From Rathayibacter sp. VKM Ac-2760 (lineage in GTDB: Bacteria; Actinomycetota; Actinomycetes; Actinomycetales; Microbacteriaceae): DNA of 64,000 nt. This document shows positions 7,306-27,164 of the stretch, piece by piece. The stretch lies in contig NZ_CP047173.1 in NCBI RefSeq assembly GCF_009834185.1, positions 1,391,725 to 1,455,724 on the forward strand, given 5' to 3'. The translations under genes and the position numbers were made by a program. Below the pieces are notes generated by a model. It made no database searches, was not told the origin of the DNA, and saw nothing but the letters and a program-made list of their open reading frames with translations. The first letter of the stretch is position 1, and every line of letters starts with the position of its first letter.

Positions 7306-7320
7306 CGGCCGCCGAGTGCG

Positions 7321-10038: not shown

Positions 10039-10229
10039 AGCGGCCTTGACTGGACGCAGTCGGGACGAACGCTCCCGACCCGGCCCCGTCGCTCCGCTCG
10101 CCCTCGAACCGCCCCGAGCGACGCCGGCCTCTGCATCACAGCACCGCCCGTTCCACCCGGCACTCCTGTCCCTGCACCACTCGCTCGCGCCCCGCCCGGC
10201 GCGCTCCTCACCGAACCCCGGAGGTTCCC

Positions 10230-10799
10230 ATGACCGACGACCAGACCACCCCCGCCGACGTCAGCACGGACGACCAGGCCGCGATCGAAGAGCAGATCAG
10301 CGCCAACATCGAGAAGTCGCGCGGCGAGATCGCGCACCCCTCGCTGCCCAAGGGCAGCAACCTCTACGGCTCCACCAAGGTCTTCCCCGACTACCAGGCC
10401 GAGCCCGGGCAGTCCTACTTCACCCTCGTGCACGGCATCGCGCACGAGTCCTCGGTCAGCTTCGTCGCGATCCTGCAGGCGACCCGCGCGGCCCGCAAGG
10501 GCTTCGAGTCGGCCGTCTACTTCTACGGCCCCGGCACGATCAACGCGATGGCGACCCGTGGCTTCCCGACGGTCGGCGACTCCGGCTTCCCGGGGGAGCA
10601 GAACATCAACGACGCCCTGAAGACCTTCATCGACGAGGGCAACCGCGTCTTCGTCTGCCGCTTCGGCATGGCGCTGCACGGCCTGCGCGAGGAGGACCTG
10701 ATCGAGGGCACCATCCCCTGCCACCCGCTCGACGTGCAGGACGCCGTCATCCACTACGCCCGCAAGGGCGCCATCATCAACTCGACCTACAACCTCTAG
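10230..10799 (+). CDS. Sll0783 / MSMEG_0572-family nitrogen-starvation-response protein (Nit1C Hp1/NitB-like)
   Basis: 189-aa ORF with good RBS (GGAGG), immediately upstream of nitrilase as in sll0783-sll0784. Confidence 0.6.
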   Translation: MTDDQTTPADVSTDDQAAIEEQISANIEKSRGEIAHPSLPKGSNLYGSTKVFPDYQAEPGQSYFTLVHGIAHESSVSFVAILQATRAARKGFESAVYFYGPGTINAMATRGFPTVGDSGFPGEQNINDALKTFIDEGNRVFVCRFGMALHGLREEDLIEGTIPCHPLDVQDAVIHYARKGAIINSTYNL

Positions 10800-10808
10800 G
10801 CCGCCGCC

Positions 10809-11687: not shown

Positions 11688-12000
11688 GATGACCTTCCAC
11701 GTCCGCTGGCCGGACGGCGTCGAGGAGCGCTGCTACTCGCCGAGCCTGGTGATGCACGACTACCTCGCCGAGGGCGAGAGCTATCCGCTCGAGGACTTCG
11801 TCGGGCGCTCGACCGAGGCGCTGCGGCTGGCCAGCGAGCGGGTGCGCGCGAAGTTCGGCTTCGCCTGCACCTCCGCGCTGCAGCAGGAGTCGGAGATCGT
11901 CGCGGCCGCCGCGCGCTTCGACGGCGGGCGGGTGCGGGTGCTGGCGATGGATCCGCCGCTGCCGTCCGCTGCTCCGACCGTGCAGGGGACGCGCGCATGA
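11680..12000 (+). CDS. small MSMEG_0570-family protein (Nit1C Hp2/NitG-like)
   Basis: 106-aa ORF overlapping nitrilase stop and flavoprotein start; position conserved in cluster. Confidence 0.55.
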   Translation: MPEMTFHVRWPDGVEERCYSPSLVMHDYLAEGESYPLEDFVGRSTEALRLASERVRAKFGFACTSALQQESEIVAAAARFDGGRVRVLAMDPPLPSAAPTVQGTRA

Positions 12001-13271
12001 CCGCGCTCGAGAACGGCCGGCACCTGCCGGTCGCCGTGATCGGCGCCGGTCAGGCCGGGCTGTCGATCAGCCGCCTGCTCACGGACGAGGGCGTCGAGCA
12101 CCTCGTGATCGAGCGCGACACGATCGCGCACGACTGGCTCGACCGCCGCTGGGACAACTTCACCCTCGTCACGCCGAACTGGCAGTGCCGGCTCCCGGGT
12201 TACCCCTACGACGGCGACGACCCGCACGGCTTCATGACCCGCGACGAGGTGCACGCCTGGGTGCGGCGCTACGCGGAGTCGTTCGACGCTCCGGTCGTGG
12301 AGGACACCGAGGTGCTGCGGCTGCGCGAGGGCGCGGACGGGGCCTTCGAGATCGTCACCTCGCGCGGCACGATCACGGCCGACCAGGTCGTCGTCGCGAC
12401 CGGCGGCTACCACCGGCCGGTGCTGCCGGCGGTCGCGCACCGCATCCCGGACTCGGTCGTGCAGCTGCACTCGGCCGACTACCGCTCGGCCGCGGCGCTG
12501 CCCGAGGGCGGGGTGCTCGTGGTCGGCTCCGGCCAGTCCGGCGCGCAGATCGCGGAGGACCTCTTCCTCGAGGGGCGCGCCGTGCACCTGGCGCTGGGGA
12601 CCGCTCCGAGAGTCGCCCGGTTCTACCGCGGGCGGGACTGCGTCGCGTGGCTCGCCGACATGGGCGTCTACGACGTGCCGGTGCACGCGCAGGTGGGCGG
12701 GCTCTCGAAGCGGGAGTCGACCAATCACTACGTCACCGGGCGCGGCGGCGGGCGGGATATCGACCTGCGGGCGTTCGCGCGCGACGGGATGCACCTCTAC
12801 GGGCGGCTGCAGCAGGTCGACGGTGCGTCGCTCCGGTTCGCGCCGACGGCCGAGGCGTCGCTCGACTACGCGGACTCGGTCGCCGAGTCGATCAAGAACG
12901 ACATCGACGCCTACATCGAGCGCTCGGGCGTGCAGGCGCCGACCGAGGCCCGCTACACCCCGGTCTGGCGGCCGGAGCGCGAGATCGAGGAGCTGGACCT
13001 GGCGGCCGCCGGGATCACGAGCATCGTCTGGGCGGTCGGCTTCCGCGCCGACTACTCCTGGATGCAGATCGGCGTCTTCGACGGCGCCGGGCACCCCACC
13101 CACCGCCGCGGCGCGACCGCGGTGCCGGGGCTGCACTTCCTCGGGCTGCCGTGGCTGAACACCTGGGGCTCCGGCCGCTTCGAGGCGATCGCGCGGGATG
13201 CGGAGCACGTGGTGCAGCAGCTGCTCGGCGGCGCGCGGTTGGACCGGTTCGAGGGCGCCGCGGTACGGTGA
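11997..13271 (+). CDS. FAD/NAD(P)-binding oxidoreductase, MSMEG_0569 / NitH family
   Basis: two dinucleotide-binding motifs (VAVIGAGQAG; VLVVGSGQSGAQIAED), flavin monooxygenase-like. Confidence 0.8.
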   Translation: MTALENGRHLPVAVIGAGQAGLSISRLLTDEGVEHLVIERDTIAHDWLDRRWDNFTLVTPNWQCRLPGYPYDGDDPHGFMTRDEVHAWVRRYAESFDAPVVEDTEVLRLREGADGAFEIVTSRGTITADQVVVATGGYHRPVLPAVAHRIPDSVVQLHSADYRSAAALPEGGVLVVGSGQSGAQIAEDLFLEGRAVHLALGTAPRVARFYRGRDCVAWLADMGVYDVPVHAQVGGLSKRESTNHYVTGRGGGRDIDLRAFARDGMHLYGRLQQVDGASLRFAPTAEASLDYADSVAESIKNDIDAYIERSGVQAPTEARYTPVWRPEREIEELDLAAAGITSIVWAVGFRADYSWMQIGVFDGAGHPTHRRGATAVPGLHFLGLPWLNTWGSGRFEAIARDAEHVVQQLLGGARLDRFEGAAVR

Positions 13272-13352
13272 CGGCCGCGCGCTCGCCCCGGGCGCGCCTC
13301 CGGCCGCTCGTCCGGCCGCTCGTCCGGCCGGGCGGGGCGAGAGAAGAGGACC

Positions 13353-14207
13353 ATGTCGAGCATCACCCTGGCCGCGGTCGCGGCGCACTTCGGCCGCGAT
13401 CTCGAGCGCACCCTCGTCAAGCTGCCCGGCATGATCGCGAGCGCGCAGGAGCGCGGGATCGACCTGCTGGTGCTGCCCGACGCGACGCTCGGCGGCTACC
13501 TGCTCGACATGCACCACCCCGGCCCGGACGACCTGCCGCAGGCCGTGGAGGTCGACGGGCCGGAGGTCGCCGCGGTCGCGGCGATGGCGGGGGACACGAC
13601 GGTGTGCTTCGGCATCGCCGAGCGCGCGCTCGAGGGCGGCGAGGTCCGCCGCTACAACTCGGCGGTCTGCGTGCAGGGCGGCCGGGTGATCGGGACGCAC
13701 CGGAAGGTGCACCTGCCGCTGGGCGAATCGGAGGCGTACGCGGCGGGCGACGCGTTCCGCTCCTTCGACTCCGCGGTCGGGCGGATCGGGATGATGATCG
13801 ACTTCGACAAGACCTTCCCCGAGTCGGCGCGCTCGCTGGCGCTGGACGGGGCGGAGATCCTCTGCTGCCTCAGCGCCTGGCCGGCCAGCGTCACCGACCG
13901 GTCCGACCGGATCCGCAACGACCGGCAGGCGCACCTGTTCGACCTCTACGACTGCGCGCGCGCCGCCGAGAACCAGGTCTACCTGGTGTCCTCGAACCAG
14001 ACAGGCGTGCTCGGCGGGCTGCGCTTCCTCGGGCAGGCGAAGGTCGTCGATCCGGCCGGCGAGATCATCGCGAAGACGTGGGCGAAGGGCGGGCTCGCGG
14101 TCGCGACGGACGACGTGTCCGCGTCCGTGGCGCGAGCCCGGCGGAGCATGGACCACCTGCGGGACCGCGCCGTGCACGCGTACCACGGGGCGGCGCCCAC
14201 CGGCTGA
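13353..14207 (+). CDS. carbon-nitrogen hydrolase family protein, paralog of the nitrilase with degenerate catalytic triad (D-K-D)
   Basis: aligns to upstream nitrilase but has LVLPDATLGGY (Glu->Asp) and MIDFDKTFPE (Cys->Asp); Lys motif HRKVH retained. Confidence 0.8.
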   Translation: MSSITLAAVAAHFGRDLERTLVKLPGMIASAQERGIDLLVLPDATLGGYLLDMHHPGPDDLPQAVEVDGPEVAAVAAMAGDTTVCFGIAERALEGGEVRRYNSAVCVQGGRVIGTHRKVHLPLGESEAYAAGDAFRSFDSAVGRIGMMIDFDKTFPESARSLALDGAEILCCLSAWPASVTDRSDRIRNDRQAHLFDLYDCARAAENQVYLVSSNQTGVLGGLRFLGQAKVVDPAGEIIAKTWAKGGLAVATDDVSASVARARRSMDHLRDRAVHAYHGAAPTG

Positions 14208-14278
14208 CCCGGCCGGCCTGCCCGCCCGGCTGCCCGGCCCCGCTGCCCACCCGCCCGCTCGATCGAGAAGGAGACCCC

Positions 14279-15385
14279 GTGCGGATCGCGCAGCTGACCT
14301 ACTCCACCAGGCCCCGCGGCGGCGTGGTGCACACGCTCGCGCTCTCGGAGGCGCTGGCCCGGCGCGGGCACGAGGTGACCGTCTGGACGCTCGGCCGCGG
14401 CGGTGACTCCGCCTTCTTCCGCGCGGTCGATCCCGCCGTGGCGGTCCGGGTCGTGCCGTTCGCGGCGCGAGAGGGCGAGAGCGTCGGCGACCGGATCGTC
14501 CGCTCCCTCGATGCGCTCGCGGCCGGGCTCGCGGCGACGGGCGGGACGGAGTGGGACGTCGTGCACGCGCAGGACTGCATCTCGGCCAACGCCGCGCTCC
14601 GTGCCGGCGCCGCCGGACCGGGCGGGCTGCTGCGCACCGTGCACCACCTCGATGAGTTCACGACGCCGGCGCTGATCGACTGCCACGAGCGCGCGCTCAC
14701 CGGGCCGGCCGCGCTGCTCGCGGTCTCGGCGTCGGTCGCGGGCGACGTCGCCGCAGGCTGGGGCCGCGAGCCGACCGTGATCCCGAACGGCGTCGACGCC
14801 GCGCGCTTCGCCGCCGCCGCGGGCGGCCAGGGGGTCGCCGAGTGGCGGGCCGAGCTCGGCCGCTACGTGCTCGCGCTCGGCGGCATCGAGCCGCGGAAGG
14901 GCAGCGTCGACCTGCTGGCGGCGTTCGCGGGACTCGCGCCCGGCACGGTGCTCGTCTTCGGCGGCGGGGAGACGCTGTTCGACTACCGGGGCTATCGCGA
15001 GGAGTTCGAGCGCCGGGCGGCCGAGCTGGGGGTGACGCCGGTCGTGCTCGGCACGGTGCCCGAGGAGCGGCTCGCAGCGCTCGTCGCCGGCGCGGCGGTG
15101 CTCGGCTTCGTCTCGACCAAGGAGGGCTTCGGCCTCGCGGCGATGGAGGCGCTCGCCGCGGGGGTGCCGGTCGTCGCGCGCGATCTGCCGGTGCTGCGCG
15201 AGGTGTTCGGCGGGACGGTGGCGTACGGGAGCGACGTGGCGGGCATCCGGGCGGCGCTGGCCGCGGCGCTCGCGGGGGAGGCGCCGGACCCGCGGCCCGG
15301 GCGGGAGCTGGCCTTCTCGCACTCCTGGGACGACGTCGCCGCGAGCCACGAGGCCCTGTACCGGTCGCACGCGAGCGCCGCCTGA
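14279..15385 (+). CDS. GT4 glycosyltransferase, MSMEG_0565 family
   Basis: GTG start after GAGAAGGAGA RBS; GT4 E-x7-E region (EGFGLAAMEALAAGVPVV). Confidence 0.8.
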   Translation: MRIAQLTYSTRPRGGVVHTLALSEALARRGHEVTVWTLGRGGDSAFFRAVDPAVAVRVVPFAAREGESVGDRIVRSLDALAAGLAATGGTEWDVVHAQDCISANAALRAGAAGPGGLLRTVHHLDEFTTPALIDCHERALTGPAALLAVSASVAGDVAAGWGREPTVIPNGVDAARFAAAAGGQGVAEWRAELGRYVLALGGIEPRKGSVDLLAAFAGLAPGTVLVFGGGETLFDYRGYREEFERRAAELGVTPVVLGTVPEERLAALVAGAAVLGFVSTKEGFGLAAMEALAAGVPVVARDLPVLREVFGGTVAYGSDVAGIRAALAAALAGEAPDPRPGRELAFSHSWDDVAASHEALYRSHASAA

Positions 15386-16800
15386 TGCGCCGCTCGTTCT
15401 CGCGCTGCTTCTCGGCGCTCGCCGCGGAGGATCCCGAGCGGGTCGTGGTCGTCGCGGACGACGCGACGCTCACCGCGGGCGCCCTGGACCGGGCCTCGAA
15501 CCGGCTCGCGCGCGCCTACGCGGCGCGGGGCGTCACTCCGGACTCGCTCGTCGCGGTCTCGCTGCCGAACTCGGCCGAGCTGGTGCTGGCCTGCGCCGCG
15601 ATCTGGAAGGCGGGCGCGACGCCGCAGCCGCTCTCGCGCGGGCTCTCGGCGCGGGAGCTCGCCGAGGTCGGCGCGCTCGGGCGGCCCACGCTGAGCGTCG
15701 GCGTCGAGCTGGAGGGCGTGCCGTTCGTCCCCGCCGGCTTCGAGCCCGACCCGGCGCTGCCGGACGACGAGCTGCCGGATCTCCGGGCGGCGTCGTGGAA
15801 GGCGCCCGCCTCCTCCGGCAGCACCGGTCGGCCGAAGATCGTTCTCGCGGCGGCTCCCGCGCTGATGGACCCGACGCAGCCGGTCGCGGCCTTCCTGCCG
15901 CGGGAGGGGGTGCAGCTCGTGGCCGGGCCGCTCACCCACTCCGCGACCTTCACCTACGCGTTCCGCGGGCTCCTGACCGGGCAGCGGCTGGTGATCCTGC
16001 CGCGCTTCGACGAGGCGCGGGTGCTCGCCGCGATCGCGGCGCACCGGGTGACCTGGGCGCTGCTGGTGCCGACGATGATCCACCGGCTGCTGCGGACGCC
16101 CGCGCACCGGGACGCGGACGTGTCGTCGCTCGAGACGGTGCTGCACCTGGGCTCGCCGTGCCCGCCCGCGGACAAGCGCGCGCTGATCGACTGGGTCGGG
16201 GCGGAGAAGGTGGTCGAGGTCTACGCGGGCAGCGAGTCGAACGGGCTGACGATGATCCGCGGCGACGAGTGGCTGGAGCGGCCCGGCAGTGTCGGCCGGC
16301 CGATCGGCGGCACGGAGCTTCGGGTGCTGCGCCCGGACGGGACGGAGTGCGCGGTCGGTGAGCCGGGGCGGGTCTGGCTGAAGCGCGGCGAGCCGACCTA
16401 CCGCTACCTCGGCGGGGAGTCGAAGCGGACGGAGGACGGCTGGGACACGCTCGGCGACGTCGGCTCGGTCGACGCCGACGGCTACCTGACCGTGCTCGAC
16501 CGGGCCGACGACCTGATCCTGCGCGGCGGGGTGAACGTCTACCCGGCGGAGATCGAGCGGGTGCTGGAGGAGCACCCGGCGGTGCGCGGGGCGGTCGCGT
16601 ACGGCGTCCCGGATGCGGAGCTGGGCCAGGCGATCGAGGCGGTGGTCGACATCGCGGACGCCGCAGTGACGGCGGAGGAGCTGCTCGCCTTCGCGCGCGA
16701 GCACCTCGGCTCACGCGCGCCGCGGGCGCTGCGGCTCCAGCGCTCGCCGCTGCGCGACGACGCGGGCAAGGTGCGGCGCGCGGCGCTCGCGGACGACTGA
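15385..16800 (+). CDS. AMP-dependent synthetase/ligase (adenylate-forming enzyme)
   Basis: ATGA overlap with GT; motifs SSGSTGRPK, YAGSE, GWDTLGDVG, ILRGGVNVYP. Confidence 0.85.
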   Translation: MRRSFSRCFSALAAEDPERVVVVADDATLTAGALDRASNRLARAYAARGVTPDSLVAVSLPNSAELVLACAAIWKAGATPQPLSRGLSARELAEVGALGRPTLSVGVELEGVPFVPAGFEPDPALPDDELPDLRAASWKAPASSGSTGRPKIVLAAAPALMDPTQPVAAFLPREGVQLVAGPLTHSATFTYAFRGLLTGQRLVILPRFDEARVLAAIAAHRVTWALLVPTMIHRLLRTPAHRDADVSSLETVLHLGSPCPPADKRALIDWVGAEKVVEVYAGSESNGLTMIRGDEWLERPGSVGRPIGGTELRVLRPDGTECAVGEPGRVWLKRGEPTYRYLGGESKRTEDGWDTLGDVGSVDADGYLTVLDRADDLILRGGVNVYPAEIERVLEEHPAVRGAVAYGVPDAELGQAIEAVVDIADAAVTAEELLAFAREHLGSRAPRALRLQRSPLRDDAGKVRRAALADD

Positions 16801-16848
16801 GCAGCCGCGCAGGCGGGGCCCGCGAGTGGCCGCCGCCCGCAGGTCGCC

Positions 16849-16919
16849 GCACAACATCAGCTGAGAGGTGGGTCCCTCCCCCCACAGCGGAGGCCCTCCC
16901 TTCTCAGCTGATGTTGTGC
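16849..16919. repeat. palindromic intergenic repeat, family 2 (copy B)
   Basis: GCACAACATCAGCTGAGA ... TCTCAGCTGATGTTGTGC. Confidence 0.85.
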
Positions 16920-17028
16920 GGGGCTCGACGGCCGTCTCCGGTTTCGGAACGCCCCGGACGGGGAAGTGGAGGAGTGCCCCTTCCCCGGAGTCGTCCCGCG
17001 CGGCTCCGCAGCACCGAGAGGAACCCCC

Positions 17029-18111
17029 GTGGTCGCCATCGCCCCGCTCCGAGACCGCTTCGACGGAGTCGAGAGGATCGCCGTGCTCCGCGGTGGCGGA
17101 CTCGGCGATCTGCTCTTCGCGCTGCCCGCCGTGGACGCGCTCGCCGCCGCGTACCCGGGCGCCGAGATCACCCTGCTCGGCACTCCGGCGCACCGCGTGC
17201 TGATCGAGGGCAGCGACGCGCCCGTGGCGGGCGTCGAGGTGCTGCCGGTGGCGCAGGGTGTGCGCGACGGCGACGGGGAGGACGAGCGGATCGTCGAGGA
17301 CTTCACGGCCCGGATGCGCGCCCGGCGCTTCGACCTCGCGGTGCAGCTGCACGGCGGCGGGCGCTTCTCCAACCCGTTCCTGCTACGGCTCGGCGCGCGG
17401 CACACGATCGGCACGCGCACCGACGACGCGGCGGACCTGGAGCGCACCATCCCCTACGTCTATTACCAGCACGAGATGCTGCGCGCGCTCGAGGTCGTCG
17501 GGCTCGCGGGCGCGCCGGCGGTGCGGCTGGAGCCGTCGCTGCAGGTCGACCCGGAGCGCCGCGACCGGCTCGCCGCGGTGCTGCCCGACGGCGGACCGCT
17601 GGTGCTGATCCACCCGGGGGCGACGGACGTGCGGCGGCGCTGGGCGAGCGCGTCCTTCGCCGAGGTGGCGCGGGCGCTGCTGGCGGACGGGGCGCGCGTG
17701 CTCGTGGTCGGCGACGCCTCCGACGTGCCCGCCGCCGACGCGATCGTCGCGGGCGCGCCGGGCGCCGTGTCGTGGGCCGGCGCGGTCGAGCTGCCGGACC
17801 TCGCTCCGCTGCTCTCGCTCGCCGACCTCGTGCTCGGCAACGACAGCGGACCGCGGCACCTCGCAGCGGCGGTCGGGGCGCCCACGGTCGGCGTCTTCTG
17901 GGTGGGCAACGCGATCAACGCCCAGCCCCTCGGCCGCCAGCGCCACCGCGTCCAGCTGAGCTGGACCACCCGCTGCCCGGTCTGCGGCATCGACGTCACG
18001 CAGGTCGGCTGGACCGCCCCGCGCTGCGAGCACGAGCTGTCCTTCGTCGACGACGTCCCCGTCTCCCGCGTCCTGGAGGACGCCCGAGCCGTCCTCGCCT
18101 CGACCAGCTGA
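17029..18111 (+). CDS. glycosyltransferase family 9 (heptosyltransferase-like) 1
   Basis: GTG start after GAGAGGAA; C-terminal GNDSGPRHLAAAVGAPTVGVF motif typical of GT9. Confidence 0.8.
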   Translation: MVAIAPLRDRFDGVERIAVLRGGGLGDLLFALPAVDALAAAYPGAEITLLGTPAHRVLIEGSDAPVAGVEVLPVAQGVRDGDGEDERIVEDFTARMRARRFDLAVQLHGGGRFSNPFLLRLGARHTIGTRTDDAADLERTIPYVYYQHEMLRALEVVGLAGAPAVRLEPSLQVDPERRDRLAAVLPDGGPLVLIHPGATDVRRRWASASFAEVARALLADGARVLVVGDASDVPAADAIVAGAPGAVSWAGAVELPDLAPLLSLADLVLGNDSGPRHLAAAVGAPTVGVFWVGNAINAQPLGRQRHRVQLSWTTRCPVCGIDVTQVGWTAPRCEHELSFVDDVPVSRVLEDARAVLASTS

Positions 18112-18133
18112 CGACGCCCGGGCCTTGCCCCAA

Positions 18134-18196
18134 CCGCGAGATGCCACTTATGAGCGGCGACACCGGCGTGTCGCGCTCATAAGTGGCATCTCGCGG
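18134..18196. repeat. palindromic intergenic repeat, family 1 (copy 3) between convergent genes
   Basis: CCGCGAGATGCCACTTATGAGCG...CGCTCATAAGTGGCATCTCGCGG; G->A change in left arm matched by C->T in right arm. Confidence 0.9.
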
Positions 18197-18243
18197 GAGG
18201 GGTCGGACGCGGGTGAGCGTCAGACGTCCTGGGCGTCAGCGGG

Positions 18244-18948
18244 TCACGGCCAGGAGGGCTCCTCCTCGTGGGTGATGACGAGCTCGCGGACCTCGCAACC
18301 GCGGGGCTGGCCGAGGACGAACATCACGGCGTTCGCGACGTTCTCCGGGTCGTTGAGGAGCGCGTCGGGGCCCGGCTTGTACTGGGCGTCGCGGTCGTCG
18401 AAGAAGCGGGTCTTCATGCCGGAGGGGATCAGGGTGGTGACGCCGATCTCGCCCTTGGTCTCGGCCGCGAGGGCGCGGGTGAAGCCGAGCACGCCGAATT
18501 TCGACGCGCAGTAGGCGGTCGCGTCCGAGACGGCCTTGATCGCGAGCGAGGACGCGACGGTGACGACGCGGCCGTGGGTCTCCGTCAGGAACGGCAGCGC
18601 GGCGCGGACGACAGCGGCGGTGCCGAGCAGGTTGACCGAGATCACGCGCTCCCACTCCTCCGGGTCGACGTCGACGAGGCGGCCGCAGCGGTCGATGCCG
18701 GCCGCGGTGACGACGGCGTCGAGTCCGCCGTGCTCGTGGGCGATCTCGACGACCGCCTTCTCGGCCTCGCGGGTCTTCGCGACGTCCACCTGGTAGGCGG
18801 CGACGCCCTCCTGCACGTTCGACACGTCGCGGTCGAGGACGATCGGCGTGCCGCCCGCGGCCGCGACGGCAGCGGCGACGGCGGCTCCGAGTCCGGAGGC
18901 GCCTCCGGTGATCAGGACGCGGCCGATGGGGGTGGGGGTGGTGGTCAT
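18244..18948 (-). CDS. SDR family oxidoreductase
   Basis: TGGASGLG cofactor motif, YxxxK (YCASK). Confidence 0.85.
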   Translation of the reverse strand: MTTTPTPIGRVLITGGASGLGAAVAAAVAAAGGTPIVLDRDVSNVQEGVAAYQVDVAKTREAEKAVVEIAHEHGGLDAVVTAAGIDRCGRLVDVDPEEWERVISVNLLGTAAVVRAALPFLTETHGRVVTVASSLAIKAVSDATAYCASKFGVLGFTRALAAETKGEIGVTTLIPSGMKTRFFDDRDAQYKPGPDALLNDPENVANAVMFVLGQPRGCEVRELVITHEEEPSWP

Positions 18949-19020
18949 GGGTGTCCCTTCCAGGATCCTCGGCGCCGGCGAGCGGGCGCGGTGGGTGGTG
19001 GTCGGCCGGAGCCGACGCGG

Positions 19021-20395
19021 TCAGCCGACGCGCGCGAGCGCGGCGGCGAGATGGGTGGTCGAGCGGCCCGCGTGGTACGGCACCGTCAGGACGCGGCCGC
19101 CCCACTCGGCGACCGTCGCGGTCTCGGGCAGCGATTCGGCGGAGTAGTCGCCGCCCTTGACCCAGACGTCCGGGCGGATGCGGCGCAGTGCCTCGTCCGG
19201 GGTGTCCTCGCCGAAGACGAGCACGGCGTCGACGCACTCGAGCGCGAGCAGCAGGTCGACCCGGTCGTCCTCGGGGATGATCGGCCGCGCCGGTCCCTTC
19301 AGGCGACGGACGGAGTCGTCCGAGTTGAGGCAGACGATCAGGCAGTCGCCGAGCGCCCGGGCGGCCGAGAGGGTGCGGGCGTGCCCGGCGTGCAGCAGGT
19401 CGAAGCAGCCGCCGGTCGCGACCACGGTGCCGCCGGCGCCGCGGACGGCCTCGGCGACGCGCAGCGCGTCCACCCCCGAGGCCCCGTGCAGGGCGGCGGT
19501 GTCGGCGGGCACGGCGAGGGAGGCGCGACCGCCCGCGAGCAGATAGGCACCGGCCGCGGCGACGGCCGCGCCGACCGCCTCGGACGCAGTGGCCCCGCCC
19601 GCGAGTGCGACGGCGGCGGAGGCGGCGAAGGTCGCCCGCCCCGCACGGGTCCGTCGGCGGCACGGGGGCGGCAGGATGCACGACCGGAACGCCGGCGCCG
19701 CGCGAGCGGACCAGCGCACCGCCGGAGCCCATCGTCACGGCGACCGCGCCGCAGCCCCAGCGCTCGAGCAGCGTCGTCGCGGCGGTCTCGGCGAGGGTGA
19801 CGCCGCGGCCACTCGCGCCGGAGAAGCCGGTGGCCTCGCCGAGGTTCGGCGTCGCGAGGGTCGTCCCGGCGACGGGCGCCGAGCCGCGCGGGTGCGGATC
19901 CCAGACCAGCGGCACCGAGAGCGCGTCGAGGGCGGCCCGCAGCGAGGCGTCCTCGGTCAGCCGGCGGCCGTAGTCCGCCACGACGACCGCGTCCACCTCG
20001 TCGAGCGCGGCGAGCATCTCCAGGGTCACGCTCGGCACCGGCGGTCGCTCGCAGCCGCGGTCGAAGCGGACGACGGCCTGGCCGGAGGCCGCGACCCGCG
20101 TCTTCACCGGCGTCGGAGCGCCGGACGGACCGGCGACCACCCGCACGCCGTCGAGCGCGACCAGCAGCTCGGCGGCATCCGGGTCCGCGGCGTCGGCGAG
20201 CGCCGTCACCAGCACGACGTCGTGGCCGTCGCGCGCGAGCATCCGCGCCACGAGCCCGGCGCCGCCGGCCCGGACCCCGCGGGTCGACACGTCGACCACG
20301 GGCACGGGCGCGTCGGGGCTCAGCCGCTCGGCCGGGCCGGAGAGGTCGACGTCGAGCATCACGTCGCCGACCACGGCGATCCGCAGGCGGCTCAC
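19021..20395 (-). pseudogene. hldE: second hldE copy (heptose kinase/adenylyltransferase) interrupted by an apparent 1-nt frameshift near 19630
   Basis: kinase domain in one frame up to ...DPCGAGD, continuation TFAASAAVALAGG... and full adenylyltransferase domain (GGCFDLLHAGH...RRLKG) in another frame; GTGA overlap with gmhA stop. Confidence 0.6.
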
Positions 20396-21024
20396 GCGGC
20401 CGCCCCCGTCCGCACGCGGATCCGGTGCTCGAACGCCCGGCAGAGCGCGTGCACCAGCACGAGCTGCGCCTCCTGCACGTTCGAGCCGTGGCCCTCGAGA
20501 GCGATCGACTCGTCGCAGGCCTCGGTCAGCGGGTTCGGCCCGTCGCCGGTCAGCGCCCAGGAGCGGGCTCCGGCTGCGCGCGCCGCCTCGGCCGCGTGCA
20601 GCAGGTTGGCGCTGCGGCCGCTGGTCGAGAGCAGCACGACGACGTCGCCGGCGCGGGCGTGCGCGGTGACCTGGCGGGAGAACACGTGGTCGAAGCCGTA
20701 GTCGTTGCCGATGGCGGTGAGGCTGGAGGTCTCGGAGTGCAGCGAGATCGCCGAGAACGGCACGCGGTCGCCGTCGAAGCGGCCGACCAGCTCGGCAGTG
20801 AGGTGCTGCGCCTCCGCCGCCGAGCCGCCGTTGCCGGCCGCGAGCAGCCGCGCGCCGGAGTGCAGCCGGTCGGCCAGCTCGACGCCCCAGGCGACGATCC
20901 GGTCGGAGTGCCGCTCCAGCTGCGCGACGACGTCGAGCGCGCGGGCGATGTGGTCGTCGACGAGGCGCCGGGCGGCGTCCGTCGGGGTGTCGGTCGGGGT
21001 GTCCAGAACGGTGTCGATGCTCAT
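20392..21024 (-). CDS. gmhA: D-sedoheptulose 7-phosphate isomerase (SIS domain)
   Basis: 210-aa SIS protein ([27 protein letters not shown]). Confidence 0.85.
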
Positions 21025-22337
21025 CTGCGCGGGGCCGCCTTCCGGGGGGTGGAGGAGAGGGGAGTGCGGGCGGTGCCGCTCATGGCGGCCTCGCCGTCGC
21101 CGAGTCCGGCGAGGGTGGTCAGGTAGGCGCGCTCCGTGTCCGCGGCGACGCGGTCCCAGGAGTAGCGCGCCTCGACGCGGGCGCGGCCGGCGGCCCCGTA
21201 GGCACGGGCGCGCTCGGGGTCGGCGATCAGCGCGGCGAGCGCCTCGGCGAGGGCCTCGGGGTCGCGCGGCGGCACGTGCACGCCGGTGACGTCCTCGACG
21301 ACCGTGTCGATCAGCCCGCCGACCGAGGAGGCGACCACCGGCACGCCGCAGGCCATCGCCTCCAGCGGGGTGATGCCGAACGGCTCGTACCAGGGCGCGC
21401 AGATCACGATGTCCGCCGATCGGAGCATCGCCGGCATCTCGGTCTGCGAGAGCTGGCCGGCGAAGTCGACGCGATCGGCGACGCCGAGGCCCTCGGCGAC
21501 GCTGTGCAGGCGCTGATACTCCGGGTCGGCGGCGAGCGCGTCGCCCGAGCCGGAGCCGCCGACGATCACCAGCTCGGCGTCGCAGCCGTCGGCGACCAGG
21601 CGGGCGAGCGCCTCGATGGCGTGGCCCATGCCCTTGCGCGGCACGAGGCGGCCGATGCTCATCAGGCGCACCCGCCCGGAGCGCTCGGCGACGGGTCCGT
21701 CGGGCGTGAACCGCTCGAGGTCGACCCCGCAGGGCACCACCGAGATGCTCGCGGTCGGCACGCCCAGGCCCTTGAGCTCGAAGGCCTCGTCGGAGCAGGT
21801 GGCGACGACGCCGTCCGCCCGCTGGCCGACGCCGGGCTCGAGCCAGGCGCGCTCCTCGGGGCTGGTGTCGAGCGCGCCCTGCTGGCGGCGCTTCACCACG
21901 CCGAGCGCGTGGAAGGTGTGGAAGACGGGCACGCGGCGCCCGGTGGCGCGCTCGACCCGCTCGGAGGCGTCGAGGGCGGCGACCCCGGACATCCAGAAGT
22001 GGCTGTGCACCAGGTCGGGGCGGGAGTCGAGCCAGTCGTTCGCGAGATCGACGGCGAAGTCGCCCATGAACGGCAGCAGCTCGTCCTTCGAGACCTTGGC
22101 GGCCGGCCCGGCGTCGATGTGCACGACCTCGACGCCGGAGGTGAAGGGCACGCGCCGGGGGAGGGACGCGTCGTCGCGCCGGGTGTAGACGGTGACGCGG
22201 TGGCCGCGGCGCGCGAGCGCGTCGGCGAGCGCGGCGACGTGCACGTTCTGGCCGCCGGCGTCGACGCCGCCGAGCGTCGCCAGCGGGCTGGCGTGCTCGG
22301 AGACCATCGCGATCGAGAGGGGTCGGGTCGAGGTCAC
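21021..22337 (-). CDS. GT4 glycosyltransferase (MshA-like)
   Basis: N-terminal GG motif (GGQNVHV), C-terminal [20 protein letters not shown]. Confidence 0.85.
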
Positions 22338-23341
22338 AGGGTGCTCCCTTCGCGGGTTCCGGCGGTGGACAGGGTGCGCGGGGCGGCGGCGAGGTCGCCG
22401 AGCACCCCGTCCCAGTCGCGGTGGAACCGGCCGAGGCTGTAGCGCGCGAGCGCGGCCTCACGGGCGACCGCGCCGGCGATCGCGGCCCGCTCCGGATCCT
22501 CGATCAGCGCGCGGGCCGCGGCGGCGAGTGCGTCCAGGTCGTTCGAGATCGCGCCGGCCTCGGGCGGCACGGCGCGGCCGGCCTCGGTCGTCTCGAGCGC
22601 GACGACCGGCATCCCCAGGTGCATCGCCTCGAGCAGCGCGAGCCCGAGCGAGGTCCAGCGGAACGGGTGCAGGTAGACGCGGCGGCGGGCGAGCTCGGCG
22701 TGCATCGCGCCGGTCTTCACATCGCCGAGCACCTCGAGCCGGTCGGCGGGCAGCCCGGGCGTGCCGACGAGCCCCTCGGTCTTCATCCCGAAGACGTCGA
22801 GCGGCGCGACCGCGGCGAAGCGCGGCAGCAGATCGGTGCCGGTCACCCGCTGACGGCGCACCGGCTCGTTGATGACGACGCCGAAGCGCGCCAGCTCGCC
22901 GGTGTAGAGCGGTCCGGGGTCGTTGATCCCGTGCTCGATCACCGTGGTGCGCGTCGATCCGGTATCCCACATCAGCGCGTTGAAGTGCGTCACGTGCACG
23001 AGCAGGAGGTCGTCGCGGTCGGCGAGCGGGTGGCGGTTGTCGGGCACGTCGCCGCGGGGCGTGTTGTGCTCGACGTAGACCGCGGGGATCTCGCGGCCGA
23101 GCCGCCGGCCGAGCAGCCGCTCCGCCTCGGCGAGCTCGTCCGGACGCTGGAGGAGGACGACGTCGACGTCGGCGTCGCGCAGCTCCTCCGGGGCGATCTC
23201 GATCGTGTTCGGCCAGTCGCGGCCGCCGGTGCCGAGGCCCCAGCCGTCGCGGGCCGGAGTGGTGGGGAGCAGGTACTCGTGGTCGCCGCGGACGAACGCG
23301 TCCGCCCAGCCGCCGTGCACGTGCCAGAGCAGGATCCTCAT
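22334..23341 (-). CDS. glycosyltransferase group-1-like protein
   Basis: C-terminal GT-B E..E region ([17 protein letters not shown]); overlaps neighbours by 4 nt. Confidence 0.65.
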
Positions 23342-24420
23342 GCGAGTGCCTCCGAGGGTGTGGTGGTGGGGGTCGTCGTGGCTGTCGTCGTGGCGCGGCG
23401 CGGGAGCGCGCGGAGCCGGTGCGCGGCGGCCACCGCCTCCTCGGCGCTCACCCCCGCGAGGCAGGGGTGACCGGGCACCGGGCAGACCCGCGCGCGCGAG
23501 CCGGCGCAGGCCGCGCCCTGATCGCCGAGCAGCTCGACCGGCACGCCGTAGGGCGCCCAGCGGATCGCCGGGACGACCGGTGCGAACAGGCTGACGACCG
23601 GGGTGCCGACGGCCGCCGCGAGGTGGGCCGGGCCGGTGTTGCCGCTGATCACGACCTCGGCGCGCGCGAGCACCTCGGCCGCGCCGGCGAAGTCGGTGGC
23701 GCCGCCGAGGTCGATGCCGCGGCTGCCCGCGACCTGCGCGGTGAGCACTCGCTCGCCGGGCCCGCCGGTGACGGCGACCGCGACTCCGGAGTCGGCGAGC
23801 AGCTCCACGGCACGCGCCGCGTTCTCGGCCGGCCAGGCCCGCGCGGGAACGGCGGCACCGGGGTGCACGACCACGTACGGGCCGACCCCCTCGAGCGCGG
23901 CGGGCAGCACGCCCTCGCGGCGCACCCGCAGCAGCCCGTCGTCGCCCTTCGGCAGCGCGAAGCCCGCGGCCGCCGCGATCGCGAGGGCGCGCTCCGGCTC
24001 GGGCTGGTCCTCGTCGAGGGTCTCGCCGGGCACCAGCCGCACGTCGAGCAGGGCACCGGCGAAGTCGACCGAGGCGCCCGAGATCCGGGCGACACCGGCC
24101 AGGCGCAGCAGCAGCGCGAGCGGCAGCGGCGACTGGTGGAAGGAGGTGAGGATCACGGCCTCGTCCGGAGCGAACTCCTCGACGATCGCGCGCAGCTCCG
24201 CCACCAGGGCGGCGTCCACCGGCCGCGAGGCGTCGCCGATCCACGGGCAGGACCAGGTGCGCACCGACGTCGGCCCCGGCAGCAGCGCCGCGGCGGGCGC
24301 CCCCTGCGGCCCGGCGAGCAGCAGCACCTCGGCATCCGCGGCGATCGCCCGCACGGCCGGCCCGCAGAGCAGCACGTCGCCCGCGCTGTCCAGCCGGGCG
24401 ACCAGCACCCGCCGGGTCAC
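23338..24420 (-). CDS. glycosyltransferase family 9 (heptosyltransferase-like) 2
   Basis: GTG start overlapping gmhB stop; GNTGPAHLAAAVGTPVVSLF motif. Confidence 0.8.
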   Translation of the reverse strand: MTRRVLVARLDSAGDVLLCGPAVRAIAADAEVLLLAGPQGAPAAALLPGPTSVRTWSCPWIGDASRPVDAALVAELRAIVEEFAPDEAVILTSFHQSPLPLALLLRLAGVARISGASVDFAGALLDVRLVPGETLDEDQPEPERALAIAAAAGFALPKGDDGLLRVRREGVLPAALEGVGPYVVVHPGAAVPARAWPAENAARAVELLADSGVAVAVTGGPGERVLTAQVAGSRGIDLGGATDFAGAAEVLARAEVVISGNTGPAHLAAAVGTPVVSLFAPVVPAIRWAPYGVPVELLGDQGAACAGSRARVCPVPGHPCLAGVSAEEAVAAAHRLRALPRRATTTATTTPTTTPSEALA

Positions 24421-25061
24421 GCCTCGTCCTCGTCGGGCTGCATCGCGAGCAGCAGCTCCACGGCCTCGAGGAGCGTCGCCGCGCGCAGCGGTGCGGCGGT
24501 CACCTCCTCCGTGCGGGTGATCGGGGTCGGCACGAGGACGCCTCGCGCGCCGGCGGCGGCCGCGGCCCCCACATCGGCGCCGATGTCGCCGATCACAGCG
24601 AGCGACTCGGCGGGCAGATCCAGAGCCCGGGCCGCCTGGAGCACCATGCCCGGAGCGGGCTTGCGGCAGGCGCAGCCGTCCTCCTGCCCGTGCGGGCACA
24701 GCTGCCAGGTGTCGAAGCCGCCGAAGAGCTCGTCCACGCGGCGGTTCACCGCGTCGGCCTGCTCGCGGTCGATGATGCCGCGGGCGATGCCGGACTGGTT
24801 GGTGACGACGCCGACGGCGAGCCCCGACTGGCGGGCCCGGTCCACCGCGTCGAGGGCGGTCGGCATCGGCTCGACCCGCGCCGGGTCGCCGTTGTAGGGC
24901 ACGTCGACGACGAGCGTGGCGTCGCGGTCGAAGAGGATGCCGCGCAGCCGCGGCGCGCCCGCGACGGACGCGACGGGCGCGTCCTCGGCGGTGCGGTGCG
25001 CGGAGCCCTGCTGGATCGAGTCGTTCACCTTCTCCTCGTACCCCCCTCGTCCGGGTTCCAA
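24417..25061 (-). CDS. gmhB: D-glycero-beta-D-manno-heptose 1,7-bisphosphate 7-phosphatase (HAD family); start may be an internal GTG
   Basis: ILFDRDATL (DxDxT), VVTNQSG, Zn site CPHGQEDGCACRKP, GD(x)4D. Confidence 0.8.
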   Translation of the reverse strand: MEPGRGGYEEKVNDSIQQGSAHRTAEDAPVASVAGAPRLRGILFDRDATLVVDVPYNGDPARVEPMPTALDAVDRARQSGLAVGVVTNQSGIARGIIDREQADAVNRRVDELFGGFDTWQLCPHGQEDGCACRKPAPGMVLQAARALDLPAESLAVIGDIGADVGAAAAAGARGVLVPTPITRTEEVTAAPLRAATLLEAVELLLAMQPDEDEA

Positions 25062-25116
25062 ACGCGGGGGAGGAGAAGTCGTCCGCTCGGGCGCGTCGGT
25101 CGCCGTCCGCGTCTGC

Positions 25117-25206
25117 GCGGGTCCGGGGTCTCCGCGGGTCCGGGGATCCGCGCGCCTGAGGATCCCGCGTCCGAGGATCCCGCGTCTGAGGATCCCGCGT
25201 CTGAGC
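25117..25206. promoter_or_regulatory. tandem short repeats containing GGATCC in the divergent gmhB / GT9 promoter region
   Basis: GCGGGTCCGGGG x2 followed by (T/C)GAGGATCCCGCGTC x3 directly upstream of both divergent gene starts. Confidence 0.5.
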
Positions 25207-25249
25207 CGCTCGGAGCGGGGTACGGGACCTCCGACAGGAAGGAGGCGCC

Positions 25250-26272
25250 GTGCGCGCTCTCACCGCCCCCGACGGCACCCCGGAGATCCTCGCCCTGCGA
25301 GCCCTCAAGCTCGGCGACCTCCTCGTGGCCGTCCCCGCGCTCAAGGCCCTGCGCCGCGGGTTCCCCGAGCACCGGCTGATCCTCGCGACCACGCCCTGGC
25401 TCGAGCCGATCGTCGACCTCGTCGACGGCCTCGACGCGCTCGTCCCGACCCTCCGCGGTCTCGACGACCCGCTGCCGGTCGATCCGGGCCGGATCGAGCT
25501 GGCCGTCAACCTGCACGGCAACGGCCCGGAGTCGCGCGACGCCCTGATCGCGCTGGAGCCGCAGCGCCGGCTCGATTTCCGCGTCCCCGCCCTCGACCCG
25601 GATGCGAGCCACGACGACCCGCGCCCGCTCTGGATCGACGGGGAGCTCGAGCGCGCCCGCTGGGCCCGCCTGGTCAACTCCATCGGCCTCGACGCCGACC
25701 CGGAGGACGTGGCCATCGCCGTCCCGGACGCGCCGGCTCCGGTCGCCGGCGCCGCGATCGTGCACATCGGCGCCTTCTACGGCTCGCGCGAGTGGCCGGA
25801 GGAGCGCTTCGCCGCCGTCGCCCGCTCGCTCGCCGCCGAGGGCCACCGCGTCGTCTACACCGGGGGTGCGAACGAGGCCGACCGCGCCCGCCGCGTCGCC
25901 GAGCTGGCCGGCACCGGCGAGGTGCTCGCCGGCACGATCGACCTGACCGGGTTCGCGGCGGTCGTCGCAGCCTCCGAGGTCCTCGTCACCGTCGACACCG
26001 GAGCCGCGCACCTCGCCTCGGCCTACGGCATCCCGTCGGTGGTGATCTTCGGACCGGCGCCGCCCGAGGCCTGGGGCCCGCCGGTGAGCGGACCGCACGT
26101 CGTGCTGACCGACGCGTCGCTCCGCCGCGGCGACGTCTTCTCCTCCGAGCCGGACCCCGCGCTGCTCGCGGTGCAGACCGAGCACGTGCTCGACGCGCTC
26201 GCCGCTCTGCCCTCGCGCGCCGAGGCGCACCTCAGGCGGTCCGCAGCCGCGCTGCCGGGCGGACGGGCGTGA
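25250..26272 (+). CDS. glycosyltransferase family 9 (heptosyltransferase-like) 3
   Basis: GTG start after GGAAGGAGG; VDTGAAHLASAYGIPSVVIFGP motif. Confidence 0.8.
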   Translation: MRALTAPDGTPEILALRALKLGDLLVAVPALKALRRGFPEHRLILATTPWLEPIVDLVDGLDALVPTLRGLDDPLPVDPGRIELAVNLHGNGPESRDALIALEPQRRLDFRVPALDPDASHDDPRPLWIDGELERARWARLVNSIGLDADPEDVAIAVPDAPAPVAGAAIVHIGAFYGSREWPEERFAAVARSLAAEGHRVVYTGGANEADRARRVAELAGTGEVLAGTIDLTGFAAVVAASEVLVTVDTGAAHLASAYGIPSVVIFGPAPPEAWGPPVSGPHVVLTDASLRRGDVFSSEPDPALLAVQTEHVLDALAALPSRAEAHLRRSAAALPGGRA

Positions 26273-27164
26273 CGGTCGCGACCCGCGCGCGGGCCGCCCT
26301 GGGCTGATGGCTGCGCGAGGGGGCGCCGAGGCGGTCGGCGAGCTGCGCGAGGATCCGGCGCTGCAGCCGCGAGACCTGCATCTGCGTGGTCCCGAGCGCG
26401 TCGGCGATCTGCTGCTGCGTCATCTCCTCGACGAAGCGCATCCGGAGCAGCTCGCGCTGGCCGGCCTCCAGCTCCGCGAGCGCCTCGGCCAGACCGTGCC
26501 GGCGGTCGATCGCGGCGAGGTCCGCGTCGTCTCCGCCGAGCGTCTCGCCCAGGCGGACGCCGGTCTCGCCGACCGACTCGTCGAGCGAGAGCGGGTGCCC
26601 CGCCGAGCGCGCGTCCGCGACCTCGGCCGGGTCGACGCCGAGCCGCCGCGCGATCTCGCGATCGGACGGATGACGGCCGAGCTCCTGCGCCAGCTCGTCG
26701 GCGACGACCGCCGAGCGCCGGTGCAGCTCCTGCACCCCGCGGGGCGGCCGGATCATCCAGCCCAGATCGCGGAGATGGCGCTTCAGCTCACCCGTGATCG
26801 TGGGCACCGCGAACGCGGCGAAGCTGTCGCCGCGCTCCGGGCTGAACCGCCGGGCCGCCTTCACGAGACCGACGTAGGCGACCTGCCGGAGATCCGCGCG
26901 ATCGCCGCCGCCGCGGGAGACCCGGTTCGCCATCGCCTCGGCCAGGCCGAGGTGGTCGAGCACGATGCGCTCGCGGATCCGCGCGCCCTCGGCGTCGTCG
27001 GCGCCGGCCGCCGCCTGGAACAGCGAGAGCGTGCGCGCGTCCTTCTCCTCGCGCGGCGATCCGGCCGCCGGGGGGAGCGCGGGCGGCACGGAGGCGGGCG
27101 GCACAGGGGCGGGCGGCACGGGGGCGGGGAGTGCAGTGGCGGTGGCGAGAACGACCGTGCTCAT
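26232..27164 (-). CDS. RNA polymerase sigma factor, SigB/SigF/SigG-type (group 3) with Pro-rich N-terminus
   Basis: region 2 (YVGLVKAARRFSPERGDSFAAFAVPTITGELKRHLRD) and region 4 HTH (QQQIADALGTTQMQVSRLQRR). Confidence 0.8.
   Translation of the reverse strand: MSTVVLATATALPAPVPPAPVPPASVPPALPPAAGSPREEKDARTLSLFQAAAGADDAEGARIRERIVLDHLGLAEAMANRVSRGGGDRADLRQVAYVGLVKAARRFSPERGDSFAAFAVPTITGELKRHLRDLGWMIRPPRGVQELHRRSAVVADELAQELGRHPSDREIARRLGVDPAEVADARSAGHPLSLDESVGETGVRLGETLGGDDADLAAIDRRHGLAEALAELEAGQRELLRMRFVEEMTQQQIADALGTTQMQVSRLQRRILAQLADRLGAPSRSHQPRAARARVATVTPVRPAARLRTA

Follow-up and report, generated by a model that had tools for sequence, protein, structure and literature searches.

A predicted heptose-glycan operon, probably under SigB/F-type control, in Rathayibacter sp. 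VKM Ac-2760 and other Actinomycetota

We analysed a stretch of 64,000 nucleotides (nt) from Rathayibacter sp. VKM Ac-2760 (contig NZ_CP047173.1, positions 1,391,725 to 1,455,724 of the forward strand), here called the window, in which predicted genes for heptose nucleotide synthesis are clustered with genes for several glycosyltransferases (GTs). Coordinates are counted from the first letter of the window. Because the G+C content of the window is ~75%, raw lists of its open reading frames (ORFs) are mostly noise. Genes were called from third-position GC and frame plots, start codons were then chosen, and the products were scanned against Pfam.

At the centre of the cluster are six consecutive genes on the minus strand, from gmhB to hldE, with a 4-nt overlap between each neighbouring pair. 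The first gene encodes a GmhB-like HAD-IIIA heptose-1,7-bisphosphate phosphatase (24417-25028; Pfam HAD matches) and starts with GTG at 25028, with GAGGAG upstream. It is followed by GT9-J, a family 9 GT (23338-24420; PF01075, 76.0 bits), the signature GT-B/GT1-group transferase I (22334-23341; matched by Pfam in its C-terminal half only), the retaining MshA-like GT4 enzyme H (21021-22337; Glycos_transf_1 141 bits, Glyco_transf_4 116 bits), a GmhA-like sedoheptulose-7-phosphate isomerase (20392-21024; SIS_2, 75.9 bits), and hldE for a heptose-7-phosphate kinase joined to a heptose-1-phosphate nucleotidyltransferase (19021-20395; PfkB and CTP_transf_like, in two frames). A classical short-chain dehydrogenase/reductase (SDR) of 234 aa (18244-18948, minus strand; PF00106, 132 bits) comes after hldE and is probably the last gene of the operon. 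Two further family 9 GT genes lie on the plus strand, GT9-C (17029-18111; 97.4 bits) convergent with the operon and GT9-L (25250-26272; 73.7 bits) divergent from it. The 3' end of the latter is overlapped by a minus-strand gene for a SigB/F/G-family sigma factor with Sigma70 r2, r3 and r4 domains (26232-27164). HldE2, an intact second HldE paralogue, is encoded at 4326-5801 on the minus strand (NCBIfam HldE, 346 bits) and is translationally coupled to an aldehyde dehydrogenase gene, Aldh (5798-7240, minus strand; Aldedh, 351 bits). The original prediction had claimed gmhA, gmhB and a second, frameshifted hldE copy joined by 4-nt overlaps to three glycosyltransferase genes, three GT9 genes in all (two of them flanking), two GT4-type or group-1 transferase genes, and an SDR and a SigB/F-type sigma factor adjoining them. 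Pfam and frame analysis confirmed this gene set and its coordinates, and the GT9 assignment holds for all three proteins, each of which scores above the PF01075 gathering score (22). A third GT4 gene at 14279-15385 was considered as a member of the system and rejected; its product is a MSMEG_0565-family protein of a separate adjacent cluster of the MSMEG_0565-0572/Sll0783 type.

The cluster resembles the lipopolysaccharide (LPS) pathway of WaaC, WaaF and WaaQ with GmhA, HldE, GmhB and HldD in the Pfam family of its GT9 proteins, in their GT-B relatives and in three biosynthetic enzyme families. Solved relatives of all three GT9 proteins are limited to WaaC, WaaF and the uncharacterised 3TOV; the best was WaaF 1PSW for GT9-C (E 6e-10), and 3TOV, WaaF and WaaC for GT9-L. 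The likeness extends to catalytic motifs. The N-terminal G-D motif with the catalytic Asp reads LGDLL in GT9-C, AGDVL in GT9-J and LGDLL in GT9-L and is kept in most orthologues, its match to WaaC Asp13 being made by motif position and not by alignment of the N-terminal domain. GT9-C carries WaaC-type motifs, LGD near the N terminus and NDSGPRH in the C-terminal domain, and all 44 of its 44 orthologues have Asp at the position of WaaC Asp261. In GT9-L orthologues the Asp is found in a DTG motif (66 of 69, the motif not being located in the other 3), so that the donor-side D(S/T)G..H motif is present in two of the three GT9 proteins. By contrast, in alignments to the WaaC structures 6DFE and 2GT1, GT9-J has Asn (GNTGPAH) where WaaC has Asp261, as do 82 of 85 of its orthologues. 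WaaC requires Asp261.

Other features set these proteins apart from the LPS enzymes. None of them reached an NCBIfam WaaC, WaaF or WaaQ equivalog; scores were 41-71 bits, with best values of 67.8 (GT9-C), 49.3 (GT9-J) and 70.8 (GT9-L), against cut-offs of 135-185 bits (134.6-185.3). They are 31-40% identical pairwise over parts of their length and are as far from one another as from the LPS enzymes. LPS heptosyltransferases bind an anionic lipid through a basic surface, whereas the acceptor-side halves of the GT9 proteins are acidic, with isoelectric points (pI) of 4.6-5.2. Furthermore, a lipid A acceptor carrying 3-deoxy-D-manno-oct-2-ulosonic acid is impossible in a monoderm. Judged by their sequences, the three GT9 proteins are not LPS enzymes. 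We also observed that the C-terminal segments of two of them are rich in Cys and His, with CPVCG...CEH in GT9-C (window 17980-18060) and C-x8-C-x6-C with His in GT9-J (window 23400-23470); these segments could be metal-binding. GT9-L has no cysteines.

For the biosynthetic enzymes, we compared scores with NCBIfam equivalog cut-offs. GmhA had phosphoheptose isomerase models as its best matches (146 and 139 bits, under their cut-offs). GmhB scored 109 bits on its equivalog (cut-off 178) and passed the HAD-IIIA and histidinol-phosphatase-type domain models. TIGR02198 (heptose-7-phosphate kinase, cut-off 345) was the best match for both the operon HldE and HldE2, at 133.9 and 216.0 bits. On TIGR02199 (heptose-1-phosphate nucleotidyltransferase, cut-off 181.5), 185.7 bits were obtained for an intact orthologue of the operon copy, used because the HldE of the window is frameshifted upstream of this domain, and 192.0 bits for HldE2. 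The SDR reached no NCBIfam equivalog cut-off. Because GmhA, GmhB and the HldE kinase domain fall below these cut-offs, their substrates are assigned by best-hit similarity and by the clustering of the genes. Among the window proteins scanned there was no extended-SDR epimerase of the HldD (GmhD) 6-epimerase kind, in which the cluster differs from the LPS pathway, and for this reason the heptose is probably of the D,D form.

The operon copy of hldE is broken in this sequence, as had been predicted. Its PfkB and cytidylyltransferase-like parts are in different frames, and direct reading and alignment to intact orthologues place the break directly after the kinase GAGD motif, where 2 nt are deleted between 19631 and 19630; relatives read GGCGACCGCTTCGCC and the window reads GGCGACCTTCGCC. 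In three Rathayibacter relatives (L001, L085 and L086; ~92-94% DNA identity) the genes are arranged identically and HldE, with 455-458 aa, is intact; compared with them the deletion is unique to the window. Either a mutation has recently inactivated the gene or the assembly is wrong at this point. The other copy, HldE2, is intact and closer to canonical HldE than the operon copy is. Unless the gap is a sequencing error, the supply of nucleoside diphosphate (NDP)-heptose in this strain would depend on HldE2.

The two HldE paralogues differ at a motif with a bearing on the choice of nucleotide. The STTR5 motif (F/L)xxGRSTT has been tied to the synthesis of CDP- and UDP-heptose as well as ADP-heptose (PMC11573728). 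The operon HldE has YHAGRSTT, which is of STTR5 type with Tyr in place of the published Phe/Leu as its first residue, and its orthologues have (Y/F/L)xxGRSTT. HldE2 has SEHSTS there. With GRSTT in one and SEHSTS in the other, the two enzymes are probably not redundant. Conserved NDP-heptose synthetase clusters have been described in Actinobacteria (Tang et al., 2022). Such clusters are reported to combine GmhA, kinase and nucleotidyltransferase with GmhB and several GTs and to have the GRSTT (STTR5-type) nucleotidyltransferase motif, as seen here (Tang et al., 2022, 2024). From the tridomain NDP-heptose synthetase, an isomerase-kinase-nucleotidyltransferase fusion, the window differs in that GmhA and HldE are encoded by separate genes (20392-21024 and 19021-20395) with a 4-nt overlap; the window also has a second paralogue without the Arg of the motif. 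As a side observation, the gene that follows HldE2 varies among loci: in 20 loci (Arthrobacter, e.g. L018 18381-19307) it encodes a conserved protein of ~308 aa with no Pfam match, in other lineages it is a GT2 gene, and neither is present in the window.

The two transferases outside family 9 are related to enzymes of the MshA, BshA, PimA and PimB' type, with which they share a retaining GT-B fold and sequence family. The best NCBIfam match of enzyme H was mycothiol MshA, at 236.7 bits and so below the cut-off of 462.5. For transferase I, the GT1-group profile match is confined to the C-terminal half; in alignments the N-terminal motif is invariant, and by sequence this N-terminal domain is divergent with invariant motifs of its own, unlike that of the MshA/BshA/PimA type. 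An AlphaFold2 model of transferase I has a GT-B fold (predicted local distance difference test 87.8). Its Foldseek neighbours are BshA, PimB', sucrose-phosphate synthase, GlgM, TarM and PimA, with BshA and PimB' as the best matches, and these would place the modelled protein among the retaining GT4-type enzymes. All are generic GT4 neighbours (TM ~0.68) and do not point to an acceptor. In Corynebacterium halotolerans (L003 12182-14215) an MshA-like GT4 and the GmhA isomerase are fused in one protein of 677 aa. This fusion speaks for the GT4 step and heptose synthesis being functionally connected.

To gauge the distribution of the cluster we scanned one genome per species with an alignment pattern of transferase I and confirmed the matches by tblastn. 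Transferase I was confirmed in at least 589 species genomes (of at least 600 stretches). The best 80 were all from Actinomycetota, with 59-84% identity to the query, and came from genera including Rathayibacter, Amnibacterium, Curtobacterium, Agromyces, Arthrobacter, Pseudarthrobacter, Sinomonas, Brevibacterium, Streptomyces, Micromonospora, Plantactinospora and Labedaea, the last of which belongs to the Pseudonocardiaceae, and from Corynebacterium halotolerans. Protein searches with GT9-J and transferase I gave at least 8000 candidates, and all 120 matches listed were at least 64% identical; GT9-J is 95% identical to a protein of Rathayibacter sp. PhB93 and transferase I 98% identical to one of R. 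festucae. We then mapped the window proteins onto 84 loci, which include the best 80 of the at least 589. The order gmhB-J-I-H-gmhA-hldE was found in 79 of the 84, and the other 5 were ended by contig ends. An L-type GT9 is present in 69 of these loci, an SDR after hldE in 67, Aldh in 54, HldE2 adjoining the cluster in 51 (the Aldh-HldE2 pair is thus beside the cluster in 51-54), a C-type GT9 in 44 and an adjoining sigma factor gene in 39. The minimal conserved set is gmhB, a GT9, a GT, a GT4, gmhA and hldE with a second GT9. Such systems had been described as rare in monoderm Actinobacteria, and this view did not survive the count of species genomes with the signature transferase and the invariant gene order in the best loci.

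This arrangement has been noted before. The cwg operon of Streptomyces coelicolor, described in 2002, comprises 12 genes (SCO6179-6190). In the published naming of the products, cwgA-C encode a dehydratase or transferases, SCO6182 a 'dehydratase', SCO6183 a heptosyltransferase, SCO6185 and SCO6188 a transferase each, SCO6186 a phosphoheptose isomerase and SCO6187 a bifunctional synthase/transferase. We take the SCO6182 'dehydratase', a HisB-like HAD protein, as the counterpart of GmhB. In our Streptomyces loci, genes for an epimerase/dehydratase, a carbamoyltransferase and a GT2 precede the core, in which HAD phosphatase, GT9, GT, GT4, phosphoheptose isomerase, bifunctional HldE and GT9 follow one another, and a GT2 gene comes last. 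The order K-J-I-H-G-F(-L), from gmhB (K) through gmhA (G) and hldE (F) to the L-type GT9, is common to 11 Streptomyces loci and the window and fits the product names of SCO6182-6188. From this gene order, the cluster in the window is, on our reading, the counterpart of the cwgD-cwgJ core, that is, a widespread and previously noted system and not a rare or new one. The two systems are also alike in being linked to an alternative, stress-responsive sigma factor; in S. coelicolor, cwg is induced by vancomycin and depends in part on the envelope-stress sigma factor sigma-E. They differ in that the window lacks equivalents of cwgA-C (epimerase/dehydratase, carbamoyltransferase, GT2) and the trailing GT2 gene and has in addition a third GT9 of the C type, the SDR, the Aldh-HldE2 module and the adjacent SigB/F-type sigma factor gene. 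The promoters also differ, being of SigB/F type in the window and of sigma-E type in the published cwg operon.

The evidence for SigB/F-type control comes from a recurrent promoter-like motif. In the 64-kb window GTTT-N15-18-GGGWA has four matches where 0.16 would be expected, a count not attained in any of 100 shuffles. Each of the four immediately precedes a transcription unit: GTTTGG-N14-GGGTAC just ahead of gmhB (25039-25063, minus strand), GTTTCG-N14-GGGAA upstream of GT9-C (16941-16965, plus strand), GTTTGA-N13-GGGTA upstream of Aldh-HldE2 (7203-7226, minus strand), and a site upstream of the first plus-strand gene of the Sll0783-type cluster (9930-9953, plus strand). Given the site at 7203-7226, the true start of Aldh probably lies downstream of 7195. 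A weaker site with one mismatch (GTCTGA-N13-GGGTA, 25199-25222) is found upstream of GT9-L. The motif fits the promoter consensuses of Bacillus subtilis SigB (GTTTAA-N12-14-GGG(A/T)A(A/T)), mycobacterial SigF (GGWWT-N16-17-GGGTAY) and the S. coelicolor SigB homologues. It is also conserved. Within 230 nt upstream of gmhB it occurs in 47 of 82 loci against 0.7 expected, including 37 of the 39 with an adjacent sigma factor gene as well as Micromonospora and Plantactinospora; in Micrococcaceae it takes the form GTTTAG-N14-15-GGGAAC, ~10-15 nt ahead of the start codon. Upstream of GT9-C orthologues it occurs in 7 of 43 loci against 0.45 expected. By contrast, the internal genes J and H and the SDR gene have it ahead of 0 or 1 copies each, which is the chance expectation. 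Sigma-70 and intrinsic-terminator scans of 16700-28400 found nothing.

The neighbouring sigma factor had TIGR02980 (SigB/SigF/SigG) as by far its best match, at 207.3 bits against a cut-off of 234.35, and we infer that it is the regulator acting on the motif. No SigB/F-type promoter was found upstream of the sigma factor gene itself, either in the window or in 38 other loci. In the literature searched we did not find the conserved SigB/F-type promoter with its sigma factor linkage, the Asn variant of GT9-J or the motif difference between the HldE paralogues, and we regard these as leads that are not settled. The divergent promoter region between gmhB and GT9-L also contains short tandem repeats (25111-25205), in which the 15-bp unit GGATCCCGCGTCTGA occurs 4.1 times and a 17-bp unit 2.1 times. 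Both repeats are strain-specific, being absent from L001, L005 and L007, and the 15-bp repeat was rejected as a conserved operator on account of its absence from other Rathayibacter loci.

Taken as a whole, we think it likely that this locus is the Rathayibacter copy of an Actinomycetota-wide heptose-glycan operon, the cwgD-cwgJ core, which is controlled by a stress sigma factor and assembles a heptose glycoconjugate in the cytoplasm on an acceptor other than LPS. The GRSTT motif suggests CDP- or UDP-heptose as further possible sugar nucleotides, and the sugar would probably be left in the D,D form. In the order of transfer that we infer, the two retaining GT4-type enzymes (the MshA-like enzyme H and transferase I) would build a hexose or hexosamine primer on the non-LPS acceptor and the three soluble GT9 enzymes would then add heptoses on the cytoplasmic side. 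A stress sigma factor of the SigB/F type, probably the product of the adjacent gene, would be needed for expression. The proteins of the cluster are all acidic and soluble, without transmembrane segments. Together with the lack of conserved export genes, the lack of HldD in the window and the likeness of the transferases to MshA, BshA and PimA, this supports cytoplasmic-side assembly on a non-LPS acceptor. More tentatively, the product may belong to a class of monoderm heptose glycoconjugates without a structural description, made entirely by soluble enzymes, possibly from CDP- or UDP-heptose too, switched by SigB/F and involving a GT9-J with a distinct donor or mechanism; we give this somewhat less than an even chance.

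Several observations weigh against this interpretation. The hldE gene of the operon is disrupted in this sequence, and GmhA, GmhB and the HldE kinase domain all score under their equivalog cut-offs. GT9-J has Asn at the position of WaaC Asp261, and its sequence suggests that it may use another donor or differ mechanistically. Clustering of ORFs across the 84 loci revealed no conserved flippase, ATP-binding cassette (ABC) exporter, polyprenyl-phosphate priming transferase or LytR-CpsA-Psr (LCP) ligase, which together with the lack of transmembrane segments is a poor fit to a classical pathway for a cell-wall polymer. The relation to cwg is drawn from the synteny of other Streptomyces and the published product names and not from the SCO sequences, and next to no match to the sigma-E (CseBC) motif AAC-N17-CGTCT was found when the regions ahead of the cwgA-like genes of the Streptomyces loci were searched, so the link rests on synteny and product names. 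Finally, searches of the literature on heptose and heptosyltransferases in Actinobacteria, on Rathayibacter wall glycopolymers, on Arthrobacter stress and on heptose in actinomycete walls yielded no identified product. A Frankia study lists a heptosyltransferase gene, not necessarily one of this cluster, as induced by salt.

The strongest competitor, although itself unlikely, is a soluble cytoplasmic product, either a heptosylated small-molecule glycoside or an intracellular oligo- or polysaccharide, that serves as a protectant in stress or starvation or as a reserve. In its logic such a product would be akin to mycothiol-type glycosides, glucosylglycerate and the mycobacterial methylmannose and methylglucose polysaccharides. 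It would agree with soluble, acidic cluster proteins that lack membrane segments and have no conserved exporter, flippase, priming transferase or wall ligase nearby, and with the acidic acceptor-side halves of the GT9 enzymes. Enzyme H is closest to MshA, whose acceptor is inositol phosphate, and the modelled transferase I appears nearest to BshA, which uses malate as its acceptor, and to sucrose-phosphate synthase, GlgM, tll1591 and the methylmannose-polysaccharide mannosyltransferase. The promoter belongs to the general-stress SigB/F class and its motif also precedes the Sll0783-type 'nitrogen starvation' cluster. However, to our knowledge all characterised GT9 enzymes act on a membrane-bound or protein acceptor, and this counts against a soluble product, as does the vancomycin-induced and partly sigma-E-dependent control of cwg in S. 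coelicolor. Two enzymes that act on lipids, PimA and PimB', and one of wall teichoic acid, TarM, are likewise among the fold neighbours of transferase I, and the lack of export genes in the cluster does not prove that there is no export. The envelope-stress control in Streptomyces favours a glycolipid or lipoglycan of the membrane, exported at a later stage, whereas the soluble enzymology and the general-stress promoter favour a soluble small molecule. Our first choice is an envelope glycoconjugate and our second a soluble cytoplasmic glycoside or oligosaccharide, with protein heptosylation and an antibiotic well behind.

A different question is whether the cluster works at all in this strain. 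That it is a decaying, non-functional remnant is improbable. The 2-nt deletion after GAGD does remove the end of the kinase and puts the nucleotidyltransferase out of frame, at a site where three relatives are intact. But all other genes are intact with a third-position GC of 0.87-0.98, both halves of hldE keep a strong coding signal, and the promoter motifs are intact. Moreover, HldE2 could supply NDP-heptose, and a gap of 2 nt where the sequence is rich in GC could stem from faulty assembly.

It is very unlikely that the GT9 enzymes heptosylate proteins in the cytoplasm in the manner of TibC or AAH, with the GT4 enzymes extending or priming the glycan. Protein heptosylation is among the few established uses of ADP-heptose outside LPS, and it would suit three soluble GT9 paralogues without machinery for a lipid carrier. 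However, neither GT9-C, GT9-J nor GT9-L matched a chain of the BAHT protein heptosyltransferases TibC/AAH at E ≤ 0.01, their relatives being WaaC, WaaF and 3TOV. Also, no conserved candidate substrate protein is encoded with the cluster, and two extra hexosyl-type transferases and an SDR are not expected in a simple case of this kind.

A secondary-metabolite cluster for a heptose antibiotic of the septacidin or hygromycin B kind has next to no chance and was rejected, since although actinomycete heptose natural products start from sedoheptulose 7-phosphate via GmhA- and HldE-type enzymes, the operon order is identical and the proteins are 50-98% identical to those of the window across Micrococcales, Streptomyces, Micromonospora and others (a pattern that fits a housekeeping or stress function better than a strain-specific antibiotic), the window proteins scanned include none for aminocyclitol, nucleoside, acyl-chain, resistance or export functions, and the region is surrounded by core genes, gltX among them.

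In vertebrates, heptose nucleotides strongly trigger ALPK1-TIFA innate immunity, and they are usually taken as a mark of Gram-negative bacteria. If hundreds of actinobacterial species, among them plant-associated and soil bacteria and relatives from skin or gut, share a conserved, stress-induced heptose pathway, monoderms too would be able to make them. With the gene set, the candidate regulator and its motif, and the GT9 variant, the question of the operon's product, posed since the cwg report of 2002, becomes approachable by experiment in fast-growing Micrococcales. The window itself represents an ordinary member of the family with a probable loss-of-function lesion in one gene.

We also noted several features of the surrounding region. 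A complete MSMEG_0565-0572/Sll0783-type 'nitrogen starvation response' cluster occupies 7262-16800, with genes for a radical SAM protein (TIGR04043), a MSMEG_0572-family protein (TIGR04044), two CN-hydrolases, a MSMEG_0569-family flavoprotein (TIGR04046), the MSMEG_0565-family GT4 (TIGR04047), an AMP-ligase and a protein of 392 aa without assignment. It separates Aldh-HldE2 from GT9-C; in R. tritici, Curtobacterium and C. halotolerans these two lie side by side. Copies of a long palindrome, CACAACATCAGCTGAGA-loop-TCTCAGCTGATGTTGTG, flank this inserted cluster at 7238-7305 and 16850-16918 (predicted hairpin energies of -39 and -55 kcal/mol), each ~20-25 nt upstream of a SigB/F-type promoter, and half-sites are found at 37621-37637 and 46078-46094. 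A single copy is present at the corresponding site upstream of GT9-C in L085 (16447-16483) and L007 (16346-16381). The palindrome could be a terminator or insulator, a binding site for a regulator, or the recombination site of the insertion.

On a larger scale, an Rv2993c-like fumarylacetoacetate (FAA)-hydrolase gene (1022-1999) and gltX (28303-29844), which we take to be neighbours in Mycobacterium tuberculosis, are ~26 kb apart in the window. Between them are the heptose cluster, the Sll0783-type cluster, Aldh-HldE2 and a RecQ-type helicase gene. An Rfam scan of the window returned one tRNA only, located elsewhere. Between the sigma factor gene and gltX there is a non-coding tandem array (27354-28198) of a 92-bp unit in 9.2 copies with 87% match, which has no Rfam family match and holds internal 19-bp sub-repeats (CCGCGAGCCGAACC...). 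In related Rathayibacter loci the gap between the two genes is ~340 bp, and in L001 it contains a single partial copy of the 92-bp unit (L001 7098-7148).

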